55,033 nt of DNA from a virus, in UHGV virus genome UHGV-0072939. The stretch is one strand, 5' to 3'. Below the pieces are notes generated by a model, which saw only the letters and a list, made by a program, of their open reading frames with translations, had not been told where the DNA came from and did no database searches. The translations under genes were made by a program, and so were the position numbers. Positions 28,767 through 49,700 of the stretch are shown here, piece after piece (position 1 is the stretch's first letter; every line of letters starts with the position of its first letter).

Positions 28767-28788
28767 CCGGCAGTCTTGAACTTAACAA

Positions 28789-29154: not shown

Positions 29155-29169
29155 TTATGTTCTCCATAC

Positions 29170-30929: not shown

Positions 30930-30943
30930 GCTTTTTCTCCATA

Positions 30944-31330
30944 TCAGGCGGCTGCACCCGCCGGTTCGTATTGGCTGATCGTTATCTCAACCCTGCCTTT
31001 CGTCACCACTGGCCCCCACTCCACCAGCATGCGTTTTACCTGGCTGTCATCCTCCCACACGCCAGCATGTGTCAGCGCGTCAAACAGCGCTTTGTTGTAG
31101 TTGTCCAGATCCCGGCGGCGCGCGTCCGGCGGATACAGGGTGATTTCGACTGCAGCAGGCGCTGTTGATGGCTTCGGCAGCCTGCGCAGCTGCTCAATGA
31201 TCGCCGCGCAGGCCGCGCTCTGGTATTTGCGGCCGTCAGCACTGATAAGATGGCGCCCGGCCAGCGGCCCCTTGTTAGGGGCGCGCCAGTAGGTGTTAAC
31301 GCTCGGAGGAAACGGCAGCACCAGCTTCAT
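30944..31330 (-). CDS. rusA: Holliday junction resolvase RusA-like
   Basis: about 128 aa from ATG 31330 (MKLVLPFPPSVN...), characteristic RusA N-terminus and DxDN-containing core. Confidence 0.8.
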   Translation of the reverse strand: MKLVLPFPPSVNTYWRAPNKGPLAGRHLISADGRKYQSAACAAIIEQLRRLPKPSTAPAAVEITLYPPDARRRDLDNYNKALFDALTHAGVWEDDSQVKRMLVEWGPVVTKGRVEITISQYEPAGAAA

Positions 31331-33366
31331 GCCACCTCCCGCTGCGGATCCGCGCACATCTCAGGTAAGTTTGCCTCCACCAGCGCGCGGGCGAATGGTG
31401 GCGGGACGGCGTTGCCGCAGCGCGCGACCTGCTTATCCTTCGCGTAGCGGTTGCCCCGGTAGTCCTGATCGATAACGTAGCCATCCGGGAAGCCCTGGGC
31501 TTTGTACAACTCATGGGGCTGCAACATACGCATGCCGATATCAACAATCTGGTACTTAACACCCTCGATCGTCACCAGCCATTCGTCTTCGCTTTCCCCG
31601 CAGTAGGTTTCCAGGAATGTCCGAACCTCCCCTACATGCTGGCCGCCGGCGGTGATGGTTGGCATCGGTTCGTCCAGGCGCTGCCCGTCGCGGCATGTTC
31701 CCCTTAATTTGATTAGATGCGACGTCACCATCGCGCTATCAGCTTTTGTAGTCAGGGTTTGAATAGGCTCACTTACATCCCTAGGACGGCTCTGCCCGGC
31801 ACGACCGCCTACACCTACGACCTGTGCACTTACAAGTGCGTGGTGATCGACCGTCGTCACGGAGTGTGCTGGCTCATCCAGACCCACGCCCGGGCCCGTA
31901 TAATTCCCGCCGTAGTGCTTCGCCAGGAATGCGCTCACCGTTGCAAACTTATTGCCACCAGCGGTAACTGTGCCCAACGGGGTATCGATTTTCAGCACGT
32001 GCGGCTGCTGCCCCGGACGCTCACCGTAGCCCATCTGTATCAGGGTTGGTGTAACCAACTGGGATTTACCGCCACCACCCGCTGTGATGGTCGCACTCGG
32101 CTCATCCGCCCGGTGGCCGATACTGGCGCCGAACTGGCGGGCAATCACTGGCGTAACCAGGCAGGCGCGGGATTGCTTCAGGATAGTGTGGGCAGGCTTA
32201 TTCAGCGCGCGCGGCTTCGCCTGGTATTCGCTGCCGCCGTTGCCAGCCAGGAATGGTGTCAGCGCCGCCTCAACAACGCCTAGGGCATGACCATTCCCGC
32301 CCGGACGCGCCGATGTGCCAGCGGTCACCGTAGGAACCGGTTCGGTAACGGGTTGCCCGGTTGCGCCGGTGCGGAATTTAGTCAGGTGCGGTACCGCTAT
32401 CGCGTAGCCGTGGGTTTTGGTGATGGTCTGCAGCGGCGCGCCCAGCTCCTGACCACGAAAACAGTCATAGCTACCTTTCGTCGTGGTGTGGTTACATTTC
32501 ACGATGAACGGCGAGGCGCTCTCGATGACAAACCGCTGGATACCGCGCGCAATACGCTTCAGGGTATTTTCTGCCAGGGGCTTTTTGCGATCGAAGATAG
32601 AAAGCGCCGGGATATTCCAGTCGATACACTCCGCCGCGGTGCGCCACGGCGCCAGCCTGCCGCTCTGCACTTCCAGTGATTTCGGATCCCCGTGGGTCGG
32701 TTCAGGCCAGTGAATGGCTTTACCATCGCAGCGCATGACCATAAAGAAACGGCGACGGATTGTCGGCGCGCCATAGTCGCACGCGCGCAGCTCGCGATAA
32801 TCGACGTCATAGCCGAGCCCGGCAACCAGCTGTTGCGCCTGCCCGCTGCCAGGTTCAATAGAGAGAAATTCGCAGACCTCAGCCAGCGCCGGATGATCTG
32901 CCGGGATCCCCGTTGACAGCATAGCGACAAACGCCGTGAACGTTTCGCCAGCACGCGCAGGATCCGGGCGCATTTCGTCAGCCAGCAGCGGCCCCCACGT
33001 TTTAAACTCTTCGACGTTCTCCAGCATCATTACGCGTGGTCGCTTCGCCAGCGCCCAGCGGATAACTACCCACGCCAGCCCGCGGATTTCCTTCTTCACC
33101 GGCTTCGCGCCTTTCGCCTTTGAAAAATGGCGGCAGTCGGGGCTGAACCATGCCAGGCCAACAGGATGCGCGCCAGTGGCAGCAACCGGATCCACATCAA
33201 ACACCGATTCGCAGTAATGCAGCGTGTCGGGGTGGTTGGTCTTGTGCATGGCGATGGCGTTTTCGTCGTGGTTGATGGCAATATCCACGCTGCGCCCTAT
33301 GGCGAGTTCGATCCCGGTAGAGGCACCGCCGCCGCCGGCGAAGTTATCAACGATAATTTCACGCAC
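31327..33366 (-). CDS. DNA cytosine-5 methyltransferase with long C-terminal extension
   Basis: 679 aa; motif I FAGGGG, motif IV-like SPDCRHFS, motif VI ENV (MLENVEEF). Confidence 0.8.
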   Translation of the reverse strand: MREIIVDNFAGGGGASTGIELAIGRSVDIAINHDENAIAMHKTNHPDTLHYCESVFDVDPVAATGAHPVGLAWFSPDCRHFSKAKGAKPVKKEIRGLAWVVIRWALAKRPRVMMLENVEEFKTWGPLLADEMRPDPARAGETFTAFVAMLSTGIPADHPALAEVCEFLSIEPGSGQAQQLVAGLGYDVDYRELRACDYGAPTIRRRFFMVMRCDGKAIHWPEPTHGDPKSLEVQSGRLAPWRTAAECIDWNIPALSIFDRKKPLAENTLKRIARGIQRFVIESASPFIVKCNHTTTKGSYDCFRGQELGAPLQTITKTHGYAIAVPHLTKFRTGATGQPVTEPVPTVTAGTSARPGGNGHALGVVEAALTPFLAGNGGSEYQAKPRALNKPAHTILKQSRACLVTPVIARQFGASIGHRADEPSATITAGGGGKSQLVTPTLIQMGYGERPGQQPHVLKIDTPLGTVTAGGNKFATVSAFLAKHYGGNYTGPGVGLDEPAHSVTTVDHHALVSAQVVGVGGRAGQSRPRDVSEPIQTLTTKADSAMVTSHLIKLRGTCRDGQRLDEPMPTITAGGQHVGEVRTFLETYCGESEDEWLVTIEGVKYQIVDIGMRMLQPHELYKAQGFPDGYVIDQDYRGNRYAKDKQVARCGNAVPPPFARALVEANLPEMCADPQREVA

Positions 33367-34258
33367 TGGTCACCCCCTGTATGCTGCTGACCAGTCCACC
33401 AGCAACCGTTATGATTTCGCTGGTTGGCATACGCTCGAGCCACAGCTGGTTAATGTTCGCTTTCAGCTTGTTCTGCTGCGATGCATCCAGAGAATCCGCC
33501 CCCTCAACCTGGTTGAACACCAGACCAACCTCAAGCGGCCAGATACGCGAATCCACATCAGGTAATGCTGCTGGCGCTACAATGGGTTCTTCTTGCTCTG
33601 GCGCCGTGGTGGCTGGTGGCTGAACCTTACCCGCGGCAAATTCGACAAGCGCCATGAAAGCCTGGCCTTTAGCCTCCAGCTCTGTGCGGTGGATATAGCT
33701 GAAGCGCTCGCCGCGCCAGGTCTTGTCAAACACAGCGATGGCGCCCGCAAAAAATGCGCTGGTGGGCTGCTGCTTGTCGTCTACAGGTACAAACCATTCC
33801 GGAAGGTCAAAACCGATGCGACCGCGGATGAAAACAATGTGGTCTGCATCTTCCGGCCACCATGTTTCGCTTGGTGCTGCTTTGACCAGAAACACATAGC
33901 GACCGCCCTTCTCTCGCATGGCCATCGTGTGGTTAATGATGTGGGTCATCCCGGTGATTGCCTGCTTTTCGTGGTACTGCGATCGGCTGTATGGCGGGTT
34001 AGCAAACGCGGCGCCGCCGAGTTCCGCCAGGCGCTCAGACCAGTCCTGCGTCAGCGCGTTGTCTTCTGCGGTATACCAGGCAGGGCATTTAGCGTTGCTG
34101 TCGTCGGCAAAGAGGTCCAGCACCAGCGGGCCAAACATCGCATTAATCCCCCAGAACAGCAGCTCCGGCGTGCGCCACTGATCGCCAACTTCTTTCAGCT
34201 TGTGAGCGTTCCTGCTGCGCATTTCCGCCAGCGCCTGGCAGTATTTATTTTCATTCAT
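33359..34258 (-). CDS. phage Dam-type N6-adenine DNA methyltransferase with extra C-terminal domain
   Basis: 299 aa; FANPPYS motif and N-terminal WRTP...DLFA pattern of phage N6A-MTases. Confidence 0.75.
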   Translation of the reverse strand: MNENKYCQALAEMRSRNAHKLKEVGDQWRTPELLFWGINAMFGPLVLDLFADDSNAKCPAWYTAEDNALTQDWSERLAELGGAAFANPPYSRSQYHEKQAITGMTHIINHTMAMREKGGRYVFLVKAAPSETWWPEDADHIVFIRGRIGFDLPEWFVPVDDKQQPTSAFFAGAIAVFDKTWRGERFSYIHRTELEAKGQAFMALVEFAAGKVQPPATTAPEQEEPIVAPAALPDVDSRIWPLEVGLVFNQVEGADSLDASQQNKLKANINQLWLERMPTSEIITVAGGLVSSIQGVTSA

Positions 34259-35115
34259 CCCCTGAACCCCTCAGGAATCTTGGTATCAACTGGCCCGAAC
34301 TTCACAGGATCATGCTTACGAGCTGCATCCCAGTACTGGCGCTCCGGGCGGCCTTTGCTATCCCAGCGGGTAGCGCTGGACAGGTACCCTTCGAACTTTT
34401 TCGGCCCAAACAGGGTTTCAGGACGCATGTACTGGTACTGCTCATCGTTGCCGTTCCAGTGCTCGTGCTTCAGGTCAATAACCAGCTTCAGGTCATTGAC
34501 GCTGTAACCTTCCCGCAGACGGGCGCGGATGTTTTCCAGCGAGGTCCTTGATTTCTGGTAGCGCGATCCGCTGACCTGGTTCAGATGGAGCAAAACTTCA
34601 ATCGCATGGTCAGTAATCACCACTTCCGGGTCGGGTTGCGCAGCAACCGGACAAGAAGGTTTTTTATTTACTGATGGATCAGTAGTTGTATTTACTGACG
34701 GATCCCCGCCAGATCCTGACGGGTGAAAACGCCCCTTTTTGCCGGATTCTGATGCATCAGATTTTGACGGGTCAGATTTTGATGCGTCAGAATTTGACGT
34801 GTCAGAATCTGACAGGTGAGAAAAGGCCGCAGCCTGAAGCTTTGCCACATTCAGCTGGTAAACGTTTGAAGCATTGCGGTTACCGTTGCGGCGTTGTTTG
34901 CGTGACAACCAGCCCTCCTGCTCAAGCTTACCGATGGCGGTACGTACGGTGCTTTCCCCCGCCCCTATCTGCCGGGCAATGGTCCCGATAGACGGCCAGC
35001 ACACGCCCTCGTCACTGCTGAAGTCGGCCAGGCGCGCCATGATGGCAACGCTGGACAGCTTCATGCCAGAAGCGGCGCAAGCGTCCCATACGTAGCCGGT
35101 TAATTTAGTGCTCAT
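34255..35115 (-). CDS. replication initiation protein (lambda O-like role), ori iterons inside the gene
   Basis: 286 aa; N-terminal winged-helix-like region, low-complexity SD-rich linker encoded by iteron-like repeats, conserved C-terminal phage replication domain. Confidence 0.7.
   Translation of the reverse strand: MSTKLTGYVWDACAASGMKLSSVAIMARLADFSSDEGVCWPSIGTIARQIGAGESTVRTAIGKLEQEGWLSRKQRRNGNRNASNVYQLNVAKLQAAAFSHLSDSDTSNSDASKSDPSKSDASESGKKGRFHPSGSGGDPSVNTTTDPSVNKKPSCPVAAQPDPEVVITDHAIEVLLHLNQVSGSRYQKSRTSLENIRARLREGYSVNDLKLVIDLKHEHWNGNDEQYQYMRPETLFGPKKFEGYLSSATRWDSKGRPERQYWDAARKHDPVKFGPVDTKIPEGFRG
34667..34818. repeat. iteron-like direct repeats (about eight copies of a 15-bp unit with core CTGA(C/T)G); candidate replication origin
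   Basis: tandem units TCAGATTTTGACGGG / TCAGATTTTGATGCG / TCAGAATTTGACGTG / TCAGAATCTGACAGG read directly at 34758-34818, with further copies upstream to 34667. Confidence 0.55.
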
Positions 35116-35287
35116 GGTCGTTCTTTATCTCCCTGAACTTGCGCTGAAACTGCTCGAGCGGGCTGAAACATTCACCGTGTTCATAGTCCTCGCGCAGGTA
35201 GATAACGCGCCTCGTTTCTGGCTCCCAGCGAATAACACGGACGGGCACGCCGTGGTGGTCTTTGAACCTTCGGTTAACTTCGCGCAT
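35105..35287 (-). CDS. hypothetical small protein (60 aa)
   Basis: ORF only; overlaps replication gene start. Confidence 0.35.
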   Translation of the reverse strand: MREVNRRFKDHHGVPVRVIRWEPETRRVIYLREDYEHGECFSPLEQFQRKFREIKNDHEH

Positions 35288-35459
35288 AAGCGTTTCGCCT
35301 TCCTGTAGTAAACACCCACAATTGCGGCCGCCCGACTGTGGTTACATGGCACCCAGCGGTTTGATATTCTGCGTTCATACCGAAACAGCGGAGTTCCCTG
35401 CACCGGGATCATCCTCAGTTGCGGTAAACGGTTAAAAGCCGTTAAACTGGTCATGCGGA

Positions 35460-36026
35460 TTATTTCTCCATACACGAAGAGTTGTTCGCCAAGGCGCCCG
35501 GAGCTGCACACTCGCGGGCGTCACTTTTTTCCGGCGCACAAAACACACGAAACAGCAGCGTCAGATGCTCCTGCCACTTCGCCATCACCTGGTAACTGTT
35601 CTCTTCGATTTGCTCACGTTCTGCCGGGTCAATAACGCCGTCAGCGGTCGCCTTGCGCAGGTACTGTGAGTGTCTGCCGATCCATTCGATTGACTCCATC
35701 AGGCGCTGGTTGATGTCACCGTTGTCGACGTCATCAATGTCCACCAGCGGCACAAACACACCACCGCTACGGCGGGCTATCGCATCGGTGACGTACTTAG
35801 TGCCGCTGGCATCCTGCAGCACCATCGCCCACTCAAGCGGGAAAATCTGGTCGCCTTCGCTGCGCAGCCGGTTATAGAGCGCATCGGTTGAAACTTTTCC
35901 GGCGCGATACAGGCCAAGCCATTCAGCAGCTTCGGCATATCCGCCAGGCATTTCGGCGATAGTCCGTTTAATGGCAGCCACCAGCCAGGCGGGCTGTCGT
36001 TCGACTTTCCAGTGTTGTTTATCCAC
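35460..36026 (-). CDS. regulatory protein in the CII position (possibly YdaT-like); start uncertain
   Basis: ORF 35460-36128; GTG at 36026 with AAGGGG SD is the favoured start, to limit overlap with the cro-like gene. Confidence 0.4.
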   Translation of the reverse strand: MDKQHWKVERQPAWLVAAIKRTIAEMPGGYAEAAEWLGLYRAGKVSTDALYNRLRSEGDQIFPLEWAMVLQDASGTKYVTDAIARRSGGVFVPLVDIDDVDNGDINQRLMESIEWIGRHSQYLRKATADGVIDPAEREQIEENSYQVMAKWQEHLTLLFRVFCAPEKSDARECAAPGALANNSSCMEK

Positions 36027-36054
36027 GGTTGTCCCCTTGTTTCTGTGGTATTCG

Positions 36055-36252
36055 TTAAGCGACTGTCTGATTAGACTTTTGATAAAGAACGGAGCTGTAC
36101 TTGAGCTTTCCTTTCGTGATCCGCTCAATCACAAAAGCTTGCTTCTCGGGGATGATCTCCCCCCATCGACAAACTGCTGGATGGGAAATACCTAATGCAT
36201 TAGCAGTTTTGGCTACTCCGCCGAAGTGCTCTATGACTTCAGATTTGCGCAT
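36055..36252 (-). CDS. Cro-like HTH repressor
   Basis: 65 aa, AGGAGG SD, HTH (VAKTANALGISHPAVCRW); divergent from the cI-like gene. Confidence 0.7.
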   Translation of the reverse strand: MRKSEVIEHFGGVAKTANALGISHPAVCRWGEIIPEKQAFVIERITKGKLKYSSVLYQKSNQTVA

Positions 36253-36277
36253 GATTCCTCCTGGTTACCTTACGCAC

Positions 36278-36348
36278 CACAAGGTAACAAAAGGTACATT
36301 AAATAGCAAACAACAGTTACCATCAAAAGAGGTAACATTGGTTACATG
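36278..36348. promoter_or_regulatory. operator-like AGGTA direct-repeat pairs in the cro/cI intergenic region (OR-like)
   Basis: AAGGTAACAAAAGGTACATT and GAGGTAACATTGGTTACATG read directly; same unit recurs downstream of cI. Confidence 0.45.
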
Positions 36349-37005
36349 AAAACAGAGATGAAAGACCGTATTCGTTCGCGTCGAGTCCAGCTCGATATGA
36401 CTCAGCTTACCCTTGCCAAAAAGCTTGGGGTCAGTCGCGTGTCTGTAACGAAATGGGAGAATGGAACAACGAAGCCGGATGGTGAGAATTTACACCAACT
36501 TGCTGGTGTACTTCAGGTAACCCCGGAATGGATTCTCTATGGCAAAGGAGATGCTGACGTTGATGATATCAAATTAGTCCCCTTCCTTAAGCCGCCAACA
36601 GCAGTGCCTATTATATCAGCCGTTCAGGCTGGTTTATGGACAGAAACCTACGCCAGTTCAAGGCTTACAGACGTGATTGCATGGACACAAACTACAGCTA
36701 ATGTATCTGATGAGGTTTTCGGGTTAGTGGTCCGCGGAGAGTCAATGACTAACCCTCATGGATTGCCATCAATTCCAGAAGGTTCCATTGTTATCGTTGA
36801 ACCACATTTCGGGCAAATTGATGATCTTTACGGGAAAATAGTCGTTGCCACACTGGAAGGCTCTACCGAAGCGACTGTAAAAAAATTAGTGTGGGATAGC
36901 CCATTCGCCTATCTCATGCCACTTAACCCAGCTTTCAAGCCTATCCAAATTGACGGAAACTGCCGAATTGTCGGCAAAGTCGTCCAAATAACCCAGAACA
37001 TTTAA
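36346..37005 (+). CDS. CI-like prophage repressor (HTH plus S24 peptidase domain)
   Basis: 219 aa; N-terminal HTH (LTQLTLAKKLGVSRVSVTKWENG), C-terminal GESM...K (VVRGESMTNP, KKL) LexA-type autocleavage domain. Confidence 0.85.
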   Translation: MKTEMKDRIRSRRVQLDMTQLTLAKKLGVSRVSVTKWENGTTKPDGENLHQLAGVLQVTPEWILYGKGDADVDDIKLVPFLKPPTAVPIISAVQAGLWTETYASSRLTDVIAWTQTTANVSDEVFGLVVRGESMTNPHGLPSIPEGSIVIVEPHFGQIDDLYGKIVVATLEGSTEATVKKLVWDSPFAYLMPLNPAFKPIQIDGNCRIVGKVVQITQNI

Positions 37006-37020
37006 CCCCCCAGATATGTA

Positions 37021-37047
37021 GCCAAAGTTACCTTTGGCTATTTTTTT
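37021..37047 (+). terminator. intrinsic terminator downstream of the cI-like gene
   Basis: GCCAAAG-TTAC-CTTTGGC hairpin followed by TATTTTTTT. Confidence 0.7.
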
Positions 37048-37053
37048 ACCCCT

Positions 37054-37109
37054 AAAGGTAACATTAGGTACATTTCACGCTTGACCATCAAGGTAACTAA
37101 AGGTACATT
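37054..37109 (+). promoter_or_regulatory. candidate early rightward promoter with overlapping operator repeats (PL-like)
   Basis: two AGGTAAC-N-AGGTACATT repeat pairs; TTGACC (37081) 17 bp upstream of TACATT (37104). Confidence 0.4.
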
Positions 37110-37847
37110 CAATCCATCAACAGCGAACAGGCAGGACGCCCACGAAGTAGCCGCCGGTGGCATACGAAAAACCGGATGATTCGCTGACAGGTGTCTTCGG
37201 GAGGGGTAACAGGGTCGCGGCCTGATTAACCGCTACTCGTAGTCAAATTCCTACAGCTGGTGGCGATACCCAAGCCAGGAATACCTAAAACCAGCAGGGA
37301 GTGTTAAGGACAAGGGCTAATCATCCCCCTTAGCACCCCGCCCGAAGATCCCTGTTATTGCCAACGACCCTTTCTGGCGGCCCGTGTTTTCCCTTATGTC
37401 CGCGGTCACCGCCAGCTTTTTCAGGGCACAACATGCAAGCGCATTCTATCTAACATCGGTCGTGGGGACTGGTTTGTAACTGAAAGAGTGCGCTTCCAGT
37501 TGTGATGTGCTCAAGCGAGCTGCAGCGCCGGCCGACGCAAAGACCTGTGAATCGGCTTAGCCGCAGTTTCTGGCGGCCAATACCAAAACAGAGCGGCAGG
37601 AAGTAAGCGGGTTAGCGACCCGGTGTCACAACGTTCAATCCCGATAAGCACCCTTGCGAGGATGTTTATCGGGACTGGAAGAGTTACCACTTGGAGACGG
37701 TCCTTATAAATGTCCTGGGAAGTGGCGCTTTGGTCGCGATAACAACCACTCCAGTTGATCCTGGGAGTTATCAGGTCAGTGAGCTGCCAGCACTCTCGAC
37801 GGCAGTGACGGCGGGAAGTAGACCGCTGACAGCTGGGAAAGACCAGC

Positions 37848-37936
37848 ACACAACAGATAAGAGCATCGCCGGGCGACGGGCTCATAACCCAACCCACCCG
37901 GGCGGTTGCAGCCGCAGGTGCTCTTATCTGTTGTGT
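37848..37936 (+). other. perfect 18-bp inverted repeat (ACACAACAGATAAGAGCA / TGCTCTTATCTGTTGTGT) with 53-bp GC-rich spacer in a long untranslated leader
   Basis: read directly; right arm contains boxA-like TGCTCTTA; lies ~50 nt upstream of the first early ORF. Confidence 0.6.
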
Positions 37937-37985
37937 ATGGAGATAACTTACTGGCGGTGGCAGCCGCCGTTACGAGGGTAAACCG

Positions 37986-38357
37986 ATGAGCAATGATCGC
38001 ATGACCATAGTGCCCGATTTCCTGGGCGAACTGGATGCCGGGGTGTTCATGAACAAAATCGCGGCAGCTTTAAACACCACCGCGCTTGGTGTTCTGAATA
38101 ACGGCAGCAAAGGCAAAGTAGTCCTCACCTTTGACTTTGAGCGTATGGGTAACTCCGTCGAGGAGAAGCGCGTCAAGATCAAGCACAAGCTGAACTACAG
38201 CACCCCAACTCCGCGCGGTAAAGCCTCCGAAGAAGACACCACCGAAACACCTATGTGGGTTAACAAAGGTGGCAAGCTGACCATCCTGCAGGAAGATCAG
38301 GGGCAGTTGTTCGGGATCAACGGCGGCGTTGACGGAAAGCTTAAAGCGGCACAGTGA
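37986..38357 (+). CDS. hypothetical early protein (123 aa)
   Basis: GAGGGT SD before ATG 37986; first gene of rightward early operon. Confidence 0.4.
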   Translation: MSNDRMTIVPDFLGELDAGVFMNKIAAALNTTALGVLNNGSKGKVVLTFDFERMGNSVEEKRVKIKHKLNYSTPTPRGKASEEDTTETPMWVNKGGKLTILQEDQGQLFGINGGVDGKLKAAQ

Positions 38358-38410
38358 TCCGCAGCAGACAAATCACTGACATCACTTTGACCACATATTA
38401 AGGAAATTTT

Positions 38411-39241
38411 ATGTCCCAGATTTTAGACGGCAATGCCCTGCAGCAGGTGAAAGACCTGGTTCTTTCCGGTTACCACCTGACTGCTGTTAAAGAAACGGCA
38501 TGCCCTACCGCCCTTCTCCCTGAAGGCGTAAACGTTGAAAGCCTCGAGCGTTTCGACCTGGAGCGTTTTCGTTTCCGCGGCGCCATGACCACAACCAGCA
38601 TTCCTGATTTTGTGCGTTATGCGGCTGGCTACGCCAACGAGGCCGAACCAGCGCGCTGCTTTATCGATGCTGACAACATGACCGCACGCTCCGTCTTTAA
38701 TATCGGTACGCTGGCTAACCCAGGCCATGCTGATAACGTCGCCTCTATCACCCTCAAAAAGACAGCACCATACCGAGCCCTGCTCCAGATTAACGGTGAT
38801 CGTCTGGGTCAGAAAGAAATAGCTGAGTGGCTGGAAGACTGGGCCGACTACCTCACCGCATTTGATGCCGACGGGAATGTATTGTCCATCGCGCAAGCAG
38901 CTGGTGCTGTTCGCCGCGTCAACATTAAACAAGTCTCAGAAGCAGCTCATGAAGACGAAGACTTTGGCGGCAGAAAGTCCCTGATGCAGAGCGTTGAAGC
39001 CAGCAGCAAAGACGTCATGCCGGTGGCCTTTGAGTTCAAATGCGTGCCATATGAAGGCCTGGGCGAACGCCGCTTTAGTCTGCGCAATAGCCTGCTCAAA
39101 AGTGGGGAACCGATATTTGTGCTGCGCATTGTTCAACTGGAAGCCCAGGAAGAAGCTATCGCCAATGAGTTCCGAGATCTGCTGATCGAGAAATTCACCG
39201 ATAAGCCGGTAGAAACCTTCATCGGTAATTTCAAAGCGTAA
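38411..39241 (+). CDS. YfdQ/DUF2303-like early protein
   Basis: 276 aa; recalled resemblance to CPS-53 prophage YfdQ; followed by HD-domain gene as in that prophage. Confidence 0.45.
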   Translation: MSQILDGNALQQVKDLVLSGYHLTAVKETACPTALLPEGVNVESLERFDLERFRFRGAMTTTSIPDFVRYAAGYANEAEPARCFIDADNMTARSVFNIGTLANPGHADNVASITLKKTAPYRALLQINGDRLGQKEIAEWLEDWADYLTAFDADGNVLSIAQAAGAVRRVNIKQVSEAAHEDEDFGGRKSLMQSVEASSKDVMPVAFEFKCVPYEGLGERRFSLRNSLLKSGEPIFVLRIVQLEAQEEAIANEFRDLLIEKFTDKPVETFIGNFKA

Positions 39242-39377
39242 TTGCATTGCCTTAATTGCCCTGCGCGCCGGGGCAATTAGTGAAGCGTAATTCCGTTAAT
39301 TATCGCCACCTGGCGAGGGATTCGCATACCCAAAAACAGCCGCAGGTGCAGCTGCGAAAATATGGAGAAGTACAGCG

Positions 39378-39917
39378 ATGAGCTATATCCAGACACTTTC
39401 TGGCAAGCATTTTGACTACATCAACGCCACCACTGACGATATTGATATCGAAGATATCGCCAACGCGCTTTCTAATATCTGTCGCTTCGCCGGCCACCTG
39501 CCGGAGTTCTACAGCGTCGCCCAGCACTCTGTGCTAGCCAGCCAGATTGTACCGCCTGAGCTTGCCCTGGAAGCGCTGCTGCACGATGCGGCGGAAGCCT
39601 ACTGCCAGGACATTCCGGCGCCGCTGAAAGCCCTGCTGCCGGATTACCGCCGCATTGAAACGGAGGTGGATGACTTGATCCGCAGCAAGTTCAACCTCCC
39701 GATGCACCAGACGGACGTGGTGAAGTATGCCGACCTGATGATGCTGGCCACTGAGCGGCGCGACCTCGAGATCGATGACGGGTCAGTGTGGCCCTGCCTC
39801 GAGGGTATCCCCTGCTCCGATATCGTGCAGATTGTCCCGCTGCGACCGGGCCAGGCGTTTGGTCTTTTCATGAATCGCTTTAACGAGCTGATGGAGATCC
39901 GCAAATGCGCCGCCTGA
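39378..39917 (+). CDS. HD-domain phosphohydrolase (YfdR-like 5'-deoxynucleotidase)
   Basis: 179 aa; H...HD...D metal-binding pattern (AQHSV, LLHDAAEAY). Confidence 0.6.
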   Translation: MSYIQTLSGKHFDYINATTDDIDIEDIANALSNICRFAGHLPEFYSVAQHSVLASQIVPPELALEALLHDAAEAYCQDIPAPLKALLPDYRRIETEVDDLIRSKFNLPMHQTDVVKYADLMMLATERRDLEIDDGSVWPCLEGIPCSDIVQIVPLRPGQAFGLFMNRFNELMEIRKCAA

Positions 39918-40120
39918 AGGTGAAAGAACTTGTCACAGAGGCGCATGCCGCTGTGCCGGGACTACCACCAGCTACAGCAGCGCTGATGCGCGAGATGGCG
40001 ACCAGACTCGATGTCACCTTTACAGCATTGACCGAGTTGATGGATCAGCGGGTGGCGCTTATGGCTGAAATCGAATGTCTGCGTGACAGCAGCAGCGTTA
40101 GTAAGGAGCGTGCAGCGTGA
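39905..40120 (+). CDS. hypothetical small protein (71 aa)
   Basis: ORF overlapping neighbours by a few nt; no family recognised. Confidence 0.35.
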   Translation: MRRLKVKELVTEAHAAVPGLPPATAALMREMATRLDVTFTALTELMDQRVALMAEIECLRDSSSVSKERAA

Positions 40121-40944
40121 CAGTTCATACATTAAGACAATGTCGTCCAGACCAGGAAGAGACAGAGTATTTCTGGAAACTTTTTCATGCTGCGCAGCGT
40201 AATGATGCTCGTTGGCACGGCAGTGAAATCGGCTTTATTGCTGAAGAACTTTCCCGCACGGATTTGGACCGCAACCAGAAGCTCTTTCTCCTGCGCGCCT
40301 GGCAGGTGCTCGTCGATGATAAAGGCGGGTTTGGGCGCTTTATGGGGGCGTTCGATACCTATGTGTTCAATATGCAGGATCCTGATGATGACTGCGTAGC
40401 GTGGAAACCTGAACTGAGCAAGCTGCTACAGGACGGTGATCTGCTGGATGTTGTGCTGGAGGCATATACCGAAGCGCAACGGCGCATCGCCGAGTTGGAA
40501 GCCAGAACGCTGGCAGTGAAGCTGCTAGATGAGTTTTACACCATCGCCGAAAATATCCACACTCAGGACAACCGGATCACTTCAGACCCGATGTTTTGCG
40601 TATACCAAAAGCGTGAAATTGTTGTCGATGCAGACTACGACTATGACCGCATTGTATGGGTTGATGAAGAAGGCAATGAAGCCAGCCCGCACCAGAGCGC
40701 GCGTCTTGAATTACTCCATGAAAACTTTCGCGAGCCGCCTGAAAAATGGCGCAGAATTGCGGTGAAAGAGATTGATGATTTCGTTACCTGCTGCTTTACC
40801 GAGCAGGGTTGCAAAGACTACTTGGCGTGCAATGGCCATAATCTTCGCCTGCCATTTATCTACGTAAAAAGCGGATTCAGGAATGCTGAATACATCGGCC
40901 TTCGAAACTGGTTAGCTGGCATCACTGTAAGCGAGGGAGAGTGA
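40117..40944 (+). CDS. hypothetical early protein (275 aa)
   Basis: ORF with ATGA-type coupling; no family recognised. Confidence 0.4.
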   Translation: MTVHTLRQCRPDQEETEYFWKLFHAAQRNDARWHGSEIGFIAEELSRTDLDRNQKLFLLRAWQVLVDDKGGFGRFMGAFDTYVFNMQDPDDDCVAWKPELSKLLQDGDLLDVVLEAYTEAQRRIAELEARTLAVKLLDEFYTIAENIHTQDNRITSDPMFCVYQKREIVVDADYDYDRIVWVDEEGNEASPHQSARLELLHENFREPPEKWRRIAVKEIDDFVTCCFTEQGCKDYLACNGHNLRLPFIYVKSGFRNAEYIGLRNWLAGITVSEGE

Positions 40945-40945
40945 T

Positions 40946-41365
40946 ATGGCTCTGACCAAAAAACAGCGTGCAGAATTGCGAATGAAGTTCGGCGGTCGCT
41001 GCGCTTATTGTGGTTGCGAATTGCCGGAAAAGGGCTGGCACGCCGATCACGTAGAAGCTGCGTTACGGAAATGGGAATTTGGGGACCGCCAGGCCAATGG
41101 AACACGCCGCACAGTTGCCACTGGAGAATTCTGGAAGCCTGAGAACGATTCTCTAGAAAACCTTTTCCCGGCCTGCGCCCCCTGCAATTTGTTTAAGGCT
41201 ACTTTCAGCATCGCACTATTCCGCCATGAGATAGCGCAGCAGGCGGAGCGTGCCCGCGCATACAGCGTCAATTTCCGCACAGCTGAACGTTTTGGCCTGG
41301 TTGAAGTGATAGAAAAGCCAGTTGTGTTCTGGTTCGAACGGTATCAGGAAGGAGTGCCAGCATGA
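40946..41365 (+). CDS. HNH endonuclease
   Basis: 139 aa; CxxC ... HADH ... CAPCN zinc/HNH motif arrangement. Confidence 0.7.
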   Translation: MALTKKQRAELRMKFGGRCAYCGCELPEKGWHADHVEAALRKWEFGDRQANGTRRTVATGEFWKPENDSLENLFPACAPCNLFKATFSIALFRHEIAQQAERARAYSVNFRTAERFGLVEVIEKPVVFWFERYQEGVPA

Positions 41366-41859
41366 CCAATAACAACCTGACAGAAGAAGAGTTGAACGGC
41401 CTCGCCGAAGAAATGCAGCTGTGCGCCAACCGCTGCCGACACCAGGGCTTGGAGGGTAACGCGCGGGAGTATGACCAAATTATTTGTGCCCTGCGCGAGC
41501 TTCAGCAGCGCCGGAAAGCTGATGAGCTGTCGATCCAGACAGCGCCAGCGCTGTATTCTTTATCAAAAACAGGCGAAGTGCGCTGTAGCAACTATCCGGT
41601 AATTCCGGATGGATACTGCATCATGCCTGTAACGCTGACTGCGGAGAATGGCGCGAAACGTGCTTTATCTGGTGAGTTCAGCATACCCCGTTCCGTTACT
41701 TGTCCTGAGTGTGGCGGCGACGGTTGCAGTGATTGTGATGGGCGCGGCGACTGGAATGAGGATCAGATCATTGACTGGCCGACAATAAAACTCATCTACC
41801 AAAAAGCAGTAGAAGCATGCGCAATAGCCGCAACACAGAAACAGGATAAATCAGCATGA
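41362..41859 (+). CDS. hypothetical Cys-rich protein (CPECGGDGCSDCDGRG zinc-ribbon-like)
   Basis: 165 aa; CxxCxGxG repeats. Confidence 0.4.
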   Translation: MTNNNLTEEELNGLAEEMQLCANRCRHQGLEGNAREYDQIICALRELQQRRKADELSIQTAPALYSLSKTGEVRCSNYPVIPDGYCIMPVTLTAENGAKRALSGEFSIPRSVTCPECGGDGCSDCDGRGDWNEDQIIDWPTIKLIYQKAVEACAIAATQKQDKSA

Positions 41860-42425
41860 ACCACTTAATGATCGACCTCGAAACCATGGGTAACAAGCCA
41901 AAGGCGCCAATTGTCTCCATCGGTGCCGTGTTGTTTGACCCGCAGAGCGGCGCGCTGGGCGAAGAGTTTTACACGGCCGTGCAGCTCGAAAGTGCAATGG
42001 TACAAGGCGCGGTTCCTGACGGTGACACCATCATCTGGTGGATGAAGCAAAGCCCGGAAGCCAGAGCAGCGATTTGCGCTGATGATGCTATGCCTGTAGA
42101 TGCAGCGCTTTCCGAGTTGAGCCACTTCATCAACCGTCACGCGGACAACCCGAAATATTTGAAGGTGTGGGGCAATGGCGCAAACTTCGACAACGTCATT
42201 ATTCGAGGCGCGTACGAGCGTGCCGGCCATATTTGCCCCTGGCAATTCTGGAACGATCAGGACGTGCGCACGATGGTGACCCTCGGTCGCGCTATTGGCT
42301 TCGACCCGAAGCGGGATATGCCGTTTGATGGTGAGGTGCATAACGCGCTGGCCGACGCCCGCCACCAGGCCAAATATGTTTCTGCTATCTGGCAGCGACT
42401 GGTGCCCACCAGCACCGAAGAGTAA
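41856..42425 (+). CDS. DEDDh-type 3'-5' exonuclease
   Basis: 189 aa; IDLETMG (exo I) and HNALADA (exo III) motifs. Confidence 0.75.
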   Translation: MNHLMIDLETMGNKPKAPIVSIGAVLFDPQSGALGEEFYTAVQLESAMVQGAVPDGDTIIWWMKQSPEARAAICADDAMPVDAALSELSHFINRHADNPKYLKVWGNGANFDNVIIRGAYERAGHICPWQFWNDQDVRTMVTLGRAIGFDPKRDMPFDGEVHNALADARHQAKYVSAIWQRLVPTSTEE

Positions 42426-42467
42426 AGGTAAATGCCCGGGTGCAGCCGGGCTGTGTGGAGAAACTAC

Positions 42468-42839
42468 ATGACCAAGTTGATCAACAAAAAAGTATGCGCC
42501 CTTACCGGACGACAGCGACAAGTTCTGGACTTTGTTACCCAGTACATCGCCAGTCACGGTATGCCACCCACTAAATCTGAAATCGCTGTCGGGATGGGAT
42601 TTTGCTCGACAAATGCAGCTGTTGAACACTTACGCGCATTGGAGAAGAAAGGCTTCATAGAGATACGTACTGGTGTTTCGCGCGGGATCATGCCTGTAGC
42701 AAAGCGAGAAATATCGCTACCATCCACCAGCAATGAAGATTACTGGTTTGATGGCACTTTTCAGCATCGGCGCTATGAGCGTGATATATGCAAAGCAGTT
42801 GAAGCGATGGGATTAAAGGTTTTGGGGGGTGGATCATGA
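42468..42839 (+). CDS. LexA N-terminal DNA-binding-domain homologue lacking the peptidase domain
   Basis: about 123 aa from ATG 42468 (GGAG SD); LTGRQRQVLDFVTQYIASHGMPPTKSEIAVGMGFCSTNAAVEHLRALEKKGFIEIRTGVSRGI closely parallels the LexA winged-helix domain; no GDSM/KR domain follows. Confidence 0.7.
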   Translation: MTKLINKKVCALTGRQRQVLDFVTQYIASHGMPPTKSEIAVGMGFCSTNAAVEHLRALEKKGFIEIRTGVSRGIMPVAKREISLPSTSNEDYWFDGTFQHRRYERDICKAVEAMGLKVLGGGS

Positions 42840-43045
42840 ATCTTGAATGCGTACCCATATCAACTTACTGCCGTGACTCCGGCGAGACCGTAGAAGCTGT
42901 TAATAAACGGATACAAAGGGGATTATGGCAGGAAGGGGTCCATATATTAAAGATCGATGGCGTAAAAGAGCGCTGGATTGATTTAACTGAGGTCACGAAA
43001 TGGGCGAGAAAAAACAAGGATCCTTACAGCTCCCACGCGGTATAA
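42836..43045 (+). CDS. excisionase-like protein
   Basis: 69 aa immediately upstream of and overlapping the integrase gene. Confidence 0.5.
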   Translation: MNLECVPISTYCRDSGETVEAVNKRIQRGLWQEGVHILKIDGVKERWIDLTEVTKWARKNKDPYSSHAV

Positions 43046-44175
43046 CCGCGCGCCATCATAAGAACGGCTCAACACTTATTATCACGTTCACATATAAAGG
43101 GGTTCTATGCCGGGAACCCCTTTCCCGTATCGAGCTGAATCCAAAGGGTATAAAATATGCAGAACGCCTCCTGGGAGAGGTTCAGAACAGAATTGCGGAG
43201 GGTGATTTCGATTATGCCAAATACTTCCCAAAATCTAAGAAGTTGGATATTTTTGGGAAAGTTAACCGGACAAAAAACATCAAGTCTTATCTCGATGAAT
43301 ATCTGGAGATCTGCGCAAATCGAAACTTATCGCCATCGACAATTGGAGGGTATGAAAAATGCCTCTCAGCTCTGTCTGATTTACATAAACTACACGTCGC
43401 CGAGCTTACACCGGCAGTATTGAAAAACTGGATCGCCAGCCGGAAAACAAAGCTTAAAACGATACGAAACAACCTCTCATTTTTGCGTAGCGCAATCGAT
43501 GAGGCAGTGACTGATGGGCTGTTGACGATAAACCCGGTTACGCTTGTCAGCGCCAGCCGGTACCACGTGATCGACAGCACGCCGAACCCCGACGATTACG
43601 AGGTGGATCCGTTCACACCTGCAGAGGCCAGCGCCATTTACATGCACTGCAGGTTTCAGGAATGGGAAAACCTGTTCCGCTTTGCATTTAACACCGGGAT
43701 GCGTAGTTCTGAACTGTGCGCGTTGCGCTGGCCTGATATCGACTTTATCGAGAATACTGCTCACGTTCAGGCAGCCAGCGTTGTCGGTGTGCTGAAGGGT
43801 ACCAAGACAAAAGCTGGTACCCGTAAAGTCGAGCTGAATAGCGATGCGCTGTCGGCGCTGCAGGCGCAAAAGCCATTCACCTTTATGAAGAGCGATTTCA
43901 TCTTCAGCGATCCTAAAACAGAGAAACCATGGGCAAACGCTGATGCGATTCGAAAAAAGGCCTGGGTCCCCACGTTGAAGAAAGCAGGAGTTCGGTACCG
44001 AAACCCATATCAAACACGCCATACGTTCGCTACGCGCCACATCAGCCAAGGCGTTAACCTTTTCTGGTTGGCCGGGCAAATGGGGCACAAAGGACCGGAA
44101 ATGTTGTTCCGTCACTATGGTTCCTACCTGGCTGCTTATGATGGGAAAACGGCAATTGAAGCGAGGAAATTTTGA
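43000..44175 (+). CDS. tyrosine integrase (lambda Int family)
   Basis: 391 aa; C-terminal catalytic region with R...HTFATRH...Y pattern (RHTFATRH, HYGSY). Confidence 0.9.
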   Translation: MGEKKQGSLQLPRGITARHHKNGSTLIITFTYKGVLCREPLSRIELNPKGIKYAERLLGEVQNRIAEGDFDYAKYFPKSKKLDIFGKVNRTKNIKSYLDEYLEICANRNLSPSTIGGYEKCLSALSDLHKLHVAELTPAVLKNWIASRKTKLKTIRNNLSFLRSAIDEAVTDGLLTINPVTLVSASRYHVIDSTPNPDDYEVDPFTPAEASAIYMHCRFQEWENLFRFAFNTGMRSSELCALRWPDIDFIENTAHVQAASVVGVLKGTKTKAGTRKVELNSDALSALQAQKPFTFMKSDFIFSDPKTEKPWANADAIRKKAWVPTLKKAGVRYRNPYQTRHTFATRHISQGVNLFWLAGQMGHKGPEMLFRHYGSYLAAYDGKTAIEARKF

Positions 44176-44283: not shown

Positions 44284-44319
44284 TTTCGGACACGGGTTCA
44301 ACTCCCGCCAGCTCCACCA
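44284..44319 (+). other. prophage attachment site: partial copy of the tmRNA (ssrA) 3' end
   Basis: TTTCGGACACGGGTTCAACTCCCGCCAGCTCCACCA matches the recalled 3' end of E. coli tmRNA with one mismatch; upstream sequence is not tmRNA, so this is a partial att copy. Confidence 0.7.
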
Positions 44320-44448
44320 ATCATGATTGGACGGTGTAAGGACAACACCAACAAAAACAGGAAGTTAGAAGTCTCAGCAAAACACCGACCAGACGGTGAG
44401 GAGACATAAAAGGATACGCAAAGGAGCCGCGGCTCCTGGTAACATGAA

Positions 44449-44470
44449 AGCCCACAGATGTGGGCTTTTT
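44449..44470 (+). terminator. intrinsic terminator hairpin (bidirectional context)
   Basis: AGCCCAC-AGAT-GTGGGCT followed by TTTTT; lies just past the 3' end of the minus-strand autotransporter gene. Confidence 0.6.
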
Positions 44471-44479
44471 CGTTGATGG

Positions 44480-47400
44480 TCAGAACGACCAGTTCACACC
44501 AGCTACCGCGTTCCACGGGGATTCCACACCGGCACTATGGCTATACCCCACCCCAAGATGCCCGCTTAACGTACTGCTGAATGAGGCTTTAATACCTGCC
44601 TGGTATATTCCACGTCTGCCCGACAAATAATTGACGAAATTACCGTCACTATTCACTTTCACCCGGTTATCATCGACAAATTCTTTGCGCACAGCCGCCT
44701 TCAGCCACGGCTCAACTTCCATACCGTTCCCCAGACGCATGTTGTAACTCAGCGTTGCGCCCAGTTCACGATATATACTGCGGGTATCGACTGATTTCGA
44801 TTTCATGCCATTGGATAAATGATATTCGGGGTTATCAGCGGTGAACCCCGTTAACGATGCATACGGCGTCAGGTTCCAGTTACCATCGGTAAATCGCATC
44901 CCGGTTTCAATGTGACCGCCCAGCCCGTTGCTGTGGTAACTGCCATTGGCGGCTCCACCGCTGCTCATTTTACCTGCTACGTTACTTTTAAAACGGTTCA
45001 GCTTCACGACACCGTCCAGATAGAAACCACTTTCATGTTCCCAACTGGCATAGCCGCCCAGAGAATAACTGCCCACACTGCCATGTCCTCCGCGATCAAA
45101 ACCGATATGTGAATGGGAATAGCCCATAAAAGCGCCTAGCGTGGTAATTCCTTCAGGAATATCATTACGGCTGTCGATCCCCACTGTCATTCCGGTCAGC
45201 GTCTGCTCAAACCCGGCACCCGCATCGGTGGTGACATTATTACGGGTGTTATACGTCGCCCCCCAGACATTATTGTTGTGTGGACTCGCTTTCATTATGT
45301 TCAACCGCTCGCGAATACTGTTTAGCTCAGCATCAAATACCAACGGTAATGTTGCTGCCATATTGAGTACGGCTGCCGTAGAAGGCGTAATGCGTTTCTC
45401 CGGAACGGGTGTCGGCGTTGGATCGGGAGTAGGGTCTGGTTTTGGATTTGGGTCTGGCTTTGGATCGGGTTTTGGGTCTGGCTTTGGATTTGGGATGGGG
45501 TCCGGGTTGGGTTTGACATCATTGGTCAGGTTCCAGTTGCTGTTGCCGTCACTTTTCAGGACATACTCATAGGTCCCAAGATCAACGAAACCGCCGGTAT
45601 TGCCCAGCGTAAACGAAGCATCCCCTCCCCCTGTTTTCACCAGCGTCATCGCGTCGTCAGACTGTGGGCTGACGCCGGTATCCTGAACAAAGATTTTAAA
45701 ATTACCAGTGGCGTTGTTGTTGACGACCAGTTGATCGCCCCGGGAGCCTGCAACGTTGGTATGCAGGTAGAAATTACCGCTACCGGAAAGTTCATTGGTT
45801 GTCAGCGTATTGTAGATACCGTTAGTTGTGGCAGGCGCTGCTGTTTGTGCTGACAAATAAACATCACCGTCGTTGAGTAGCAAACTGTTTACTCTATATT
45901 CGCAGTTGCTGGTACCTGCACAGGAATTATTGCTGTTAAGCCAGACACTGCCCCGGCTGGCAGCCGTCAGGTCGGCAAGCGTGGTATCGACGCCATTTCC
46001 CAGAGTCAATGTCGCGCTATCGGTAATCCGGACCGCCCCTTCGAGTTTAACTGGCGTAACATTATCCCGTGGCGTCATTAACGACAGGCTTCCTGTCGCG
46101 CCACTGACCGATGCATCCGCCAGCGTACCTGCGTAGACGATTGCCGTACCGCCAGCGACCTGGAGATCTTCTGCCCGGGCCAGAGCCTGAAACTCATCTT
46201 TTGACCGCCCAAGGGTATATTGCCCGCCAGAGTTAACCTTTGTGGCGGAGTCCTGACCCAGGTTTTGCATTGCCCCACCCTTGCCAACCGTGGAGTCGCG
46301 AGCTTCGGTACCTGCTAATACCAATAAATTACCGCCATTTTCCAGCAACATATTAGTCGCTAAATTGCCGGAAATGGAAAAAGTACCGTACTGGTGAGTA
46401 CCGCTGATTTCAATACCGTTAGCCGTGCTCGTCTGGAGAGCGGCACCGCTGTTCTGGACGATATCTGTCGCTTTGCCATTATCGTTGACTGTCAGCGTAC
46501 CGCCTTCATTGATCTTTGTTTTTATTGCCTCTCCGTTAGCTGAAACTGTTTGTATTCCGCCGTCGTTAATTGTTGTCTCATTCGCCACACCCTCGACAAT
46601 TTGTTCACCGCCGGTGAGCGTCGTGCCTGTCGCAGTGGCTTTTGTTTTGACGATCTCCCGTCCGCCCATATTGACCTGTGTTTTGTCAGAAGAGGTGTCT
46701 GACTCCACGGTTAACACGCCGCCATTTGCCAGCAGGATATTGTTCGCCGCACCCTGCTCGATGCTGAACGCGACGCCATCCGCGCGTGTTCCTGTGACCC
46801 GCGTCGCCCTGGTGGTTGCAACCAAAGCGCCCTGGCTACTCTGCTGTATCCCCGTTGCGCTGCCTTTCTCCCGCACATCGAGTGTGCCGCCGTCATTAAG
46901 CACCGAGTTTTCAGCCAGACCGCCCTCATTAACTACCTGTGAACCCCCATTAATAATGGAACCTTCCGCTGTCCCGTTTGCCATAATTTGTTGTAGGCCA
47001 GAGACGATATCGGTATTGATTGCCTTACCATAATTCTGAACGGTTTGCGTGCCACCATTGATGTGTGTTTTCTCTGTTGACCCACCATCAACAATTTGTT
47101 CACCACTTTCGATATTTGCTTCAGTGGCTAAACCATATACCGTTTGCTTGCCACCTTTGATATTTGCTTTATCAGAAGTGGCACTGGCATATATTGTTTG
47201 GGTGCCAGCACTATTGAGTACAGTGCCAACATCTTTTCCATAAACATCCATTTTGCCGTTGGCATTAATAATCGTGTCAACTGCGCGGGAACCAGTGACG
47301 ACTGTTAATGAGCCAGCGTTTTCCAGCACTACATTTTTAGCTTCTGAATTCCTGATGTAGAAAGCATCACCATAACTGTTGGTTCCTTCGATAAGTGTTC

Positions 47401-49060: not shown

Positions 49061-49429
49061 AAATTTCATCCTCTGAAAAGTGAATACTGAGTAGCGTTTA
49101 AGCGACCTTAGCTTTGCTGCAACATCAGCCCACAGGCACCAGACCAGGGGATTCATCCTGAAGAGACAGCGCAAGTGTATTGTGTTCACCGCTCATCAAA
49201 GACATCATGATGAAATGATGATATTCCGCATAAGAATGAGGCATTTTTTAAACGCAGTGCGCTGAAGTGTGGTTGGATAAAAAAGTCAATCCATTCAGGA
49301 AATACGGGCGTATTCTTTTCTTTCGACAATGAGGCCGTTGGCAAAATAAAATGATTTACATAATCGTTTCTGATGAATATCTTCTGCTCACATAAAAATC
49401 ACACAATAACTTTGAGATCGCAGATTGTT

Positions 49430-49700
49430 TTACTTTTACAGCATTCGTCCCCCCATTGTTGGGCAAATATAGATTGGGCCAGAGCACGAAAGTTAATACC
49501 ACGTTCGCACAGCTCCTCCAACAGCACGACAAGATGCCACATACTGCGCCCCAGTCGGTTCAGTTTACAGACTAGCAGTGCGTTCCCTGCCGATGATGTC
49601 CTGACCAGTTTTTTCAGTCCGGACCTCCTGCCACGGTTTTACGTTGAAGTGGTAACCCTGAGCACGCAGTTCTTCAGTCAGGCGTGGTGCACCGTAACGC
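49430..49700 (-). pseudogene. remnants of a serine recombinase (invertase/resolvase) and possibly an IS3-family transposase fragment
   Basis: minus-strand translation gives KLNRLGRSMWHLVVLLEELCERGINFRAL (resolvase-like core without N-terminal catalytic Ser) and [15 protein letters not shown] in another frame; no intact ORF. Confidence 0.4.

Follow-up and report, generated by a model that had tools for sequence, protein, structure and literature searches.

We analyzed the interval 37986–42425 of the virus genome UHGV-0072939, a stretch of 55,033 nt that is referred to here as the window and in whose numbering all coordinates and + and − strands are given. The interval is most likely an ordinary mosaic early-left operon of a lambdoid prophage that lacks a recombination (Rec) module. 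The reading that we favour, with moderate confidence, is that it forms the body of a cI-repressed early-left operon in a Rec-less lambdoid prophage of the phiNP/LLS/ST64B type and carries a cassette for manipulating host replication. By analogy with its homologues in Escherichia coli K-12, this cassette most plausibly acts on the initiation of host replication and on the pools of deoxynucleoside monophosphates (dNMPs) early in lytic growth. The gene identities, the intact catalytic motifs, the packing of the operon, the operators that it has in common with the cro–cI region and the pattern of conservation across related loci are observed, and are laid out below together with the competing explanations.

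The operon starts downstream of a cI-like repressor gene, at a promoter-like site with repressor operators, and ends with xis and int as its last genes (Table 1). The operators are copies of a repeat of 19–25 nt, AAGGTAAC-N4-GGTACAT, two of which lie between cro and cI, while three lie around or overlap the promoter-like site. This layout is that of the lambda OR and OL operators. Since the copies at the promoter match those between cro and cI, the operon can be regarded as the equivalent of lambda PL. Together with the terminator-like hairpin after cI, the three copies and the promoter-like site make up the PL/OL equivalent at 37013–37113. With a PL-type promoter and operators of the cI type, the operon should be switched on by induction or infection but kept repressed in the lysogen; thus, the early-left operon is probably silent in the lysogen. 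A preliminary description of this DNA had called the operon rightward, which is true of its + strand in the window coordinates. As a phage direction the term does not hold, because an operon that runs from cI to xis–int is the counterpart of the leftward PL operon of lambda. Eleven open reading frames (ORFs) lie on the + strand across 37986–44175, eight of them within 37986–42425. From yfdR through int, neighbouring ORFs overlap by 4–46 nt or are spaced by 1–6 nt, a tight packing that is typical of one translationally coupled operon. The promoter-like site and the first gene are separated by a leader, in which we found neither a plausible + strand ORF nor an Rfam match; the sole match of the Rfam scan was a tRNA-Met gene in the flank. 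An N-type antiterminator gene was not found as the first gene when the leader was checked for ORFs, and yfdP is the first gene instead. Of 5426 complete E. coli genomes, 1384 contain pieces of the leader without annotation; E. coli F5 has them at the same position, after a cI-like gene. This segment may act as a structured leader or as an antitermination RNA.

The surrounding DNA is that of a lambdoid prophage. Its virion genes are on the − strand and are ~75% identical to those of Citrobacter phage phiNP; the same strand also carries genes for a Q-like antiterminator, a DUF968/HNH protein, Ant, RusA, C5 and Dam-like methyltransferases, an O-like initiator, a CII-like protein and a P22-type Cro. 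Chromosomal DNA begins right after int, and from 44284 to 55033 it is 100% identical to E. coli chromosomes in the ypjA region, which identifies E. coli as the host. When a 5.2-kb query (37900–43100) was compared with the 5426 complete E. coli genomes, none matched over more than 42% of the query or at more than 86% identity; this particular prophage is rare.

No annealase, Red- or RecE-type exonuclease, Erf or Gam/Abc match was found among 20 proteins encoded in 27212–43045 (10 early-left and 10 nin/replication proteins), and the absence of lambda Red/Gam that the preliminary description had reported is thus borne out. RusA was the only recombination protein found among the 20. In a panel of lambdoid phages of Enterobacteriales, 22% were without a Rec module, and LLS, ST64B and phiNP were placed in an 'LLS functional type group' (PMC12315714). 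This 2025 study names yfdP, yfdQ and yfdR-type genes (the last as yfbR) in the Rec-less group, and argues that the cassette is not a recombinase. The window prophage resembles the LLS group (LLS, ST64B and phiNP, and also Eeyore and Flotzy) in having no Rec module. The DNA of its yfdPQR genes is ~85% identical to that of LLS, Eeyore and Flotzy; for phiNP, the figure is 79%. An exonuclease of the window type adjoins xis in phiNP, and ST64B (Sb30) and LLS (gp34) have one too.

Next, we examined the genes of the cassette. As in the CPS-53 (KpLE1) element of K-12, where the order is yfdP-yfdQ-yfdR-yfdS-yfdT, the window has yfdP, yfdQ and yfdR in this order upstream of an excisionase gene, and the three proteins show 59, 55 and 66% identity with their K-12 counterparts (the last over 178 residues, E = 2.7e-91). 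No homologue of YfdS or YfdT was found in the window. In their stead it has the 71-amino-acid (aa) ORF, an Ea22-like protein, an HNH protein, a zinc-ribbon protein, a DEDDh exonuclease and a protein with a LexA DNA-binding domain (DBD); and whereas CPS-53 is a remnant, the window prophage is apparently complete. The gene yfdP ends 53 nt upstream of yfdQ. Homologues of the YfdP-like protein carry the Pfam family PF27127 'YfdP' as precomputed annotation (e.g., 5611–5958 and 5612–5959 in loci L147 and L148, Pseudomonas and Marinobacter prophages), while the window protein has no Pfam match because PF27127 is not in the Pfam copy that was searched. YfdQ matches at 3.6e-40 the sequence in PDB entry 9o7m, which is titled 'YfdQ Protein' and holds 36 chains of the YfdQ sequence; the entry was matched by sequence, and we found no literature on 9o7m or any YfdQ structure. 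The YfdR-like protein shares its best family, phrog_318, with K-12 YfdR, and scores 20.7 bits against the Pfam family YfbR-like, under the cut-off of 25.9. Its HD motif is intact (H40, H50, H69-D70 and D119), and these HD-superfamily residues align with those of PDB 2gz4 (1.2e-12). K-12 YfdR is a 5'-deoxynucleotidase by its RefSeq product annotation, and the same activity is predicted for the window protein.

To describe the conservation of the interval, its proteins were compared with 137 related loci in two sets. The close set comprised 81 loci whose YfdQ is a close relative (80 from IMG/VR and phage Eeyore). The species-level set comprised 56 loci, one genome per species, and reached Pseudomonas, Stutzerimonas, Marinobacter, Pseudoalteromonas and Rubrivivax. 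The first protein-database searches listed only homologues that were at least 72% identical, and it was a profile from distant phage homologues that gave the diversity. YfdP was directly upstream of YfdQ in 80/81 close loci and 54/56 species-level loci, as it was in 9/9 distant phage or K-12 loci. A YfdR-type HD gene was present downstream on the same strand in 77/81 and 40/56 loci (71–95%); the 71-aa ORF, which sits at a fixed spacing where present, was found in 70/81 and 20/56. For the DEDDh exonuclease, the counts were 55/81 and 22/56 (39–68%); its distance varied across loci, and it usually adjoined xis/int. The remaining genes were found in few loci or in none: the Ead/Ea22-like gene in 2/81 and 2/56, HNH in 1/81 and 1/56, the zinc-ribbon gene in 1/81 and 3/56, and the LexA-DBD gene in 0/81 and 0/56. 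By these counts, three parts can be told apart in the interval: yfdP-yfdQ-yfdR and the 71-aa ORF form a conserved cassette, the exonuclease is its frequent companion, and the rest is sporadic cargo. The YfdP–YfdQ pair was intact in phages of Pseudomonas, Xanthomonas, Vibrio and Marinobacter, with 30–58% identity in those of Pseudomonas, Xanthomonas and Vibrio. Its neighbours in distant phages include SSB, DnaQ-like or Rv2179c-like exonucleases and HD hydrolases.

Table 1. Features of the early-left operon and other prophage genes named in the text, in window coordinates
Feature	Position	Strand	Length	Matches and remarks
N6/N4-type DNA methyltransferase	25608–26660	−		Orphan
RusA	30944–31357	−
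C5-cytosine DNA methyltransferase	31327–33366	−	679 aa	Orphan; fused extra domains
Dam-like DNA methyltransferase	33359–34258	−		Orphan
cro	36055–36252			P22_Cro-type; divergent from cI
Operator-like repeat, cro–cI intergenic copies	36280–36304, 36328–36352
cI-like repressor	36346–37005	+		HTH and S24 peptidase; Pfam HTH_3 2e-16, Peptidase_S24 3.8e-23; directly upstream of the operon
Operator-like repeat, copies near the promoter	37016–37034 (inverted), 37054–37078, 37089–37113
Terminator-like hairpin	37018–37041			3' of cI
Promoter-like site	37081–37109	+		Sigma-70-like
Leader	37114–37985	+	~0.87 kb	No credible ORF
YfdP-like protein	37986–38357	+	123 aa	phrog_204 1.3e-40
YfdQ/DUF2303	38411–39241	+	276 aa	Pfam PF10065, 2e-62, 211.3 bits against a cut-off of 26.6, residues 27–274
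YfdR-like HD phosphohydrolase	39378–39917	+	179 aa	phrog_318 3.7e-96; predicted 5'-deoxynucleotidase
71-aa ORF	39905–40120	+	71 aa	phrog_12248 2.8e-27; overlaps the end of yfdR; usual fourth cassette member in enterobacterial phages
Ead/Ea22-like mosaic protein	40117–40944	+	275 aa	phrog_1138 (N-terminal) and phrog_3205 (C-terminal), both without assigned function
HNH endonuclease	40946–41365	+	139 aa	phrog_2118 9.9e-59; phmmer 5.6e-36 to the HNH protein gp11 of ArgO145
Acidic zinc-ribbon protein	41362–41859	+	165 aa	DnaJ-type CPECGGDG and CSDCDGRG, residues 114–129
DEDDh 3'-5' exonuclease	41856–42425	+	189 aa	Rv2179c/T4 DexA family; PF16473 5.1e-74, 248 bits against a cut-off of 27; phrog_255 3.4e-87
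LexA-DBD-only protein	42432–42839	+	135 aa	Pfam LexA_DNA_bind 1.3e-22, residues 23–85; start possibly M13 at 42468
Excisionase (xis)	42836–43045	+	69 aa	phrog_2917 8.9e-38
Integrase (int)	43000–44175	+	391 aa	ORF overlaps xis; last gene of the operon, prophage end

The five gene types that the preliminary description had named (DUF2303, HD, HNH, zinc ribbon and DEDDh) are all present in the interval, as judged from profile matches and motif residues. The YfdP-like gene, the 71-aa ORF and the Ead/Ea22-like gene had been left out of that inventory.

The proposal that these genes serve in recombination, which the same description had offered, can be weighed against the loci. In its full form it holds that YfdP–YfdQ would be an annealase or accessory pair and that the DEDDh exonuclease would resect DNA, the whole being a cryptic recombination module that replaces Red in Rec-less lambdoid phages. 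The cassette does occupy the position of the Red genes in phages without a known Rec module (PMC12315714). It adjoins an SSB gene in Vibrio 44E38.2 and in ArgO145, with a gene for a DnaQ-like exonuclease also near it in 44E38.2. Moreover, the 36 YfdQ chains in one PDB entry bring to mind annealases, which typically form large rings or filaments, and, according to a citation in PMC4776307, a yfdQ deletion was reported to be sensitive to methyl methanesulfonate. However, in ArgO145 yfdP-yfdQ lies directly downstream of a complete gam-RecT-exo-SSB module, an argument also made in PMC12315714. YfdQ was tried as a relative of RecT or SSB and rejected: the hhalign probability of its profile was 0.1% against the RecT-type annealase and the SSB of ArgO145, the only recombination proteins compared. 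We therefore consider a recombination module very unlikely.

The sole experimental link of the cassette is to DnaA and the initiation of replication. Noguchi and Katayama found that purified K-12 YfdR binds DnaA via Phe46 of domain I and competes for it, to a moderate degree, against DiaA and DnaB, and that yfdQRS or yfdQRT in multicopy inhibits initiation at oriC, in vivo as well as in vitro; a lambda P-like role in the ancestral phage was their proposal (PMC4776307). In K-12, overproduction of YfdQ also raised the production of phage SW1 (bioRxiv 10.1101/413146). Herein, we describe how the cassette may act under the reading that we favour. On induction or infection, it would bring the DNA and nucleotide metabolism of the host under its control. 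YfdR, an HD 5'-deoxynucleotidase, would bind domain I of DnaA, and together with YfdQ, which would act as a large homo-oligomer and always with YfdP, it would hinder the recruitment of DiaA and DnaB at oriC. New rounds of host replication would thus be suppressed, and the replication machinery would be left for the O-type initiator of the phage. The exonuclease would trim or degrade 3' ends of DNA, and the remaining genes would be dispensable cargo.

Several points weigh against this mechanism. It is transferred from the K-12 homologues to a prophage that is known here from sequence alone. In K-12 itself, the effect on DnaA was seen only on overexpression and may be an artefact according to the authors; deletion of yfdQRST gave no replication phenotype; inhibition of oriC required YfdS or YfdT, neither of which was found in the window; and YfdQ, YfdS and YfdT did not bind tightly to YfdR or DnaA in pull-downs (PMC4776307). 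The work on DnaA leaves the role of YfdP–YfdQ, the most conserved pair, unexplained, and fold searches of YfdQ in libraries without 9o7m returned no structural relative of known function. In 16/56 species-level loci, YfdP–YfdQ was present with no HD gene within 5 kb, indicating that the pair can work without YfdR. Since the mechanism is drawn from overexpression data in K-12, it is only moderately secure.

A bolder explanation is that YfdP-YfdQ-YfdR is one widespread and undescribed phage machine, in which an oligomeric YfdQ, its fold having no characterised structural relative, and YfdP would act with the HD 5'-deoxynucleotidase. The machine would either capture DnaA and so stop the host from replicating, or collapse dNMP pools and so disarm nucleotide-based immunity such as Kongming. 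We regard this as improbable. If true, Rec-less temperate phages would possess a host-takeover or anti-defence system of a new class. On the evidence of its parts, the operon is largely ordinary, as it is assembled from gene families that are already catalogued and discussed.

The predicted activity of the YfdR-like protein has a parallel in T5 Dmp, and with it comes the explanation that the interval is an anti-defence toolkit. Here the HD enzyme would drain dNMPs or degrade nucleotide messengers and the exonuclease would remove nucleic-acid signals, blunting host immune signalling early in infection. Dmp converts dNMPs to deoxynucleosides and inhibits Kongming by destroying deoxyadenosine monophosphate, an effect that its catalytic mutant loses (bioRxiv 10.1101/2024.12.20.629578). 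The same reaction is expected of the window enzyme, and both genes are early phage genes. The intact HD active site and the early, PL-type promoter of the window genes are consistent with such a role. Many temperate phages have kept the cassette, while the authors of PMC12315714 (Genome Research) could assign no function to yfdP and yfdQ. The two enzymes, however, are of unrelated fold and family: the HD protein was rejected as a homologue of Dmp (BLASTP E = 15), which belongs to phrog_415, while the family of the window protein, as of K-12 YfdR, is phrog_318. Dmp pairs with a phage dNMP kinase and with degradation of host DNA, and the genes for Dmp mostly accompany those for phage dNMP kinases, the trigger of Kongming (bioRxiv 10.1101/2024.12.20.629578). 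The scan of 20 proteins (early-left, nin and replication) turned up no dNMP kinase, the virion block not having been scanned protein by protein. Among the proteins scanned, none matched a PHROG annotated as anti-defence, and PADLOC gave only weak, generic matches for the HNH and DEDDh proteins. For counter-restriction, the prophage has obvious equipment outside the interval, namely three orphan DNA methyltransferases (Table 1), which are probably its real anti-restriction devices. Finally, the data on homologues point elsewhere, since YfdR has been linked to DnaA (PMC4776307) and an E. coli enzyme of the DexA family has been reported as a defence against T4, rather than as a counter to defence (PMC12153337). 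An anti-defence toolkit is, in our judgement, unlikely.

The frequent companion of the cassette, the DEDDh exonuclease, is of the same family and fold as T4 DexA, and matches the DexA structures 8ken/8kel at 3e-12. In an alignment with DexA (MAFFT), the catalytic residues D7, E9, D112, H162 and D167 are invariant, as is W132, the equivalent of DexA W152. The two proteins differ in that they are only 28% identical and that extra loops of DexA are missing from the window exonuclease. The E. coli DexA homologue EcD ('HREX') selectively degrades DNA with 5-hydroxymethylcytosine and protects against T4 (PMC12153337). The window exonuclease resembles EcD, as described in that paper, in having W132 at the position of DexA W152 and A83 at that of the tetramer contact D90, the D90 match being approximate with a gap nearby. 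Our search of the literature on the role of Rv2179c-like exonucleases in phages returned nothing useful.

This likeness raises the prospect that the prophage uses the genes for defence or superinfection exclusion. The exonuclease would then destroy the modified DNA of T-even phages in the manner of EcD/HREX, and the nucleotidase would starve these phages of salvaged dNMPs. Membership in the DexA family (3e-12 to 8ken) and the pair of W132 and A83, which is the signature of EcD-like enzymes in PMC12153337, argue for it. Against this, the exonuclease gene is in an operon with three cI-type operators and so should be silent in the lysogen, which argues against a protection of the lysogen. In addition, the position of DexA D169, the proposed sensor of the 5-hydroxymethyl group, is taken by Ala146 in a low-confidence stretch of the alignment (MAFFT), where the nearest acidic residue is D149, and free-living temperate phages commonly carry the same exonuclease adjacent to xis. 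We judge a role in defence to be distinctly unlikely.

Under the favoured reading of a replication-directed cassette within an early-left operon, the genes between the cassette and the exonuclease are sporadic cargo. In its position between the recombination slot and xis, its mosaic and dispensable character and its member of the Ea22 family, this part of the operon resembles the 'ea' region between exo and xis in lambda; lambda differs in having Red/Gam upstream and no yfdPQR cassette. The Ea22-like protein matches ArgO145 gp18, annotated 'ead/Ea22-like', at 6.1e-83 (phmmer). The HNH protein has the residues of its motif (C19xxC22, H32-A-D-H35, N72 and C77xxC80, with two zinc-ligand CxxC pairs flanking), and its score against Pfam HNH, 19.0, is just under the cut-off of 21.4. 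The zinc-ribbon protein has weak matches to phrog_12449 and phrog_60. In 11 loci of the close set, partial homologues of it (46–67% identity over about half its length) were found just upstream of the exonuclease. No PDB homologue was found by sequence for the YfdP, Ea22-like, zinc-ribbon or HNH protein, and scans with NCBIfam and PADLOC gave only weak, generic matches beyond the other assignments.

The middle of the operon differs between relatives. Unlike the window, Eeyore has there a gene for a DksA-like zinc finger and a queuine tRNA-ribosyltransferase-like gene in place of the Ea22-like, HNH and zinc-ribbon genes. The queuine-type gene of Eeyore is at 10910–11662 (locus L001), and in the same operon slot ArgO145 has a PAPS-reductase-like gene at 7450–8328 (locus L085). 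These genes suggest that some members of the group carry DNA-modification cargo.

Distal to the exonuclease, and just before xis, is the LexA-DBD protein. It matches TIGR00498 lexA at 3.5e-18 with its N-terminal part only and has no S24 peptidase; its tail of ~50 residues has no assigned function. Relatives are present in 76 phage records, including orf42 of SfV, which is annotated only as 'repressor'. The region of its recognition helix is STNAAVEHLRAL, which we take to correspond to SPNAAEEHLKAL of E. coli LexA. By its domain composition, the protein could be an uncleavable binder of SOS boxes. A search for LexA boxes gave three perfect CTGT-N8-ACAG sites in the window, where chance would give 0.47; the early-left promoter has none of them. 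One of the three is a perfect, AT-rich, SOS-box-like palindrome, CTGTTTATTTTTACAG, at 26635–26650, which overlaps the N6/N4 methyltransferase gene at its 5' end. At the end of the operon, the integrase had tblastn matches of 66–69% identity in related prophage loci, where they adjoin the matches of xis.

Elsewhere in the prophage, between the late genes and the Q-like gene, a low-GC island is present at 27212–28766 (+), with a GC content of ~43% against ~57% for the prophage. It has two ORFs on the opposite strand, one of 289 aa (phrog_3243, function not assigned) and one of 140 aa with no family match, and has the look of moron cargo.

The main yield of this analysis is a corrected annotation, in which the interval belongs to an early-left operon under the control of cI, in a lambdoid prophage that is Rec-less. 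The part worth attention is yfdP-yfdQ-yfdR, which extends from Escherichia phages to those of Pseudomonas, Vibrio and Xanthomonas. The function of this cassette would explain a very common early phage module, and could show how temperate phages without Red/Gam handle host replication or nucleotide-based immunity.

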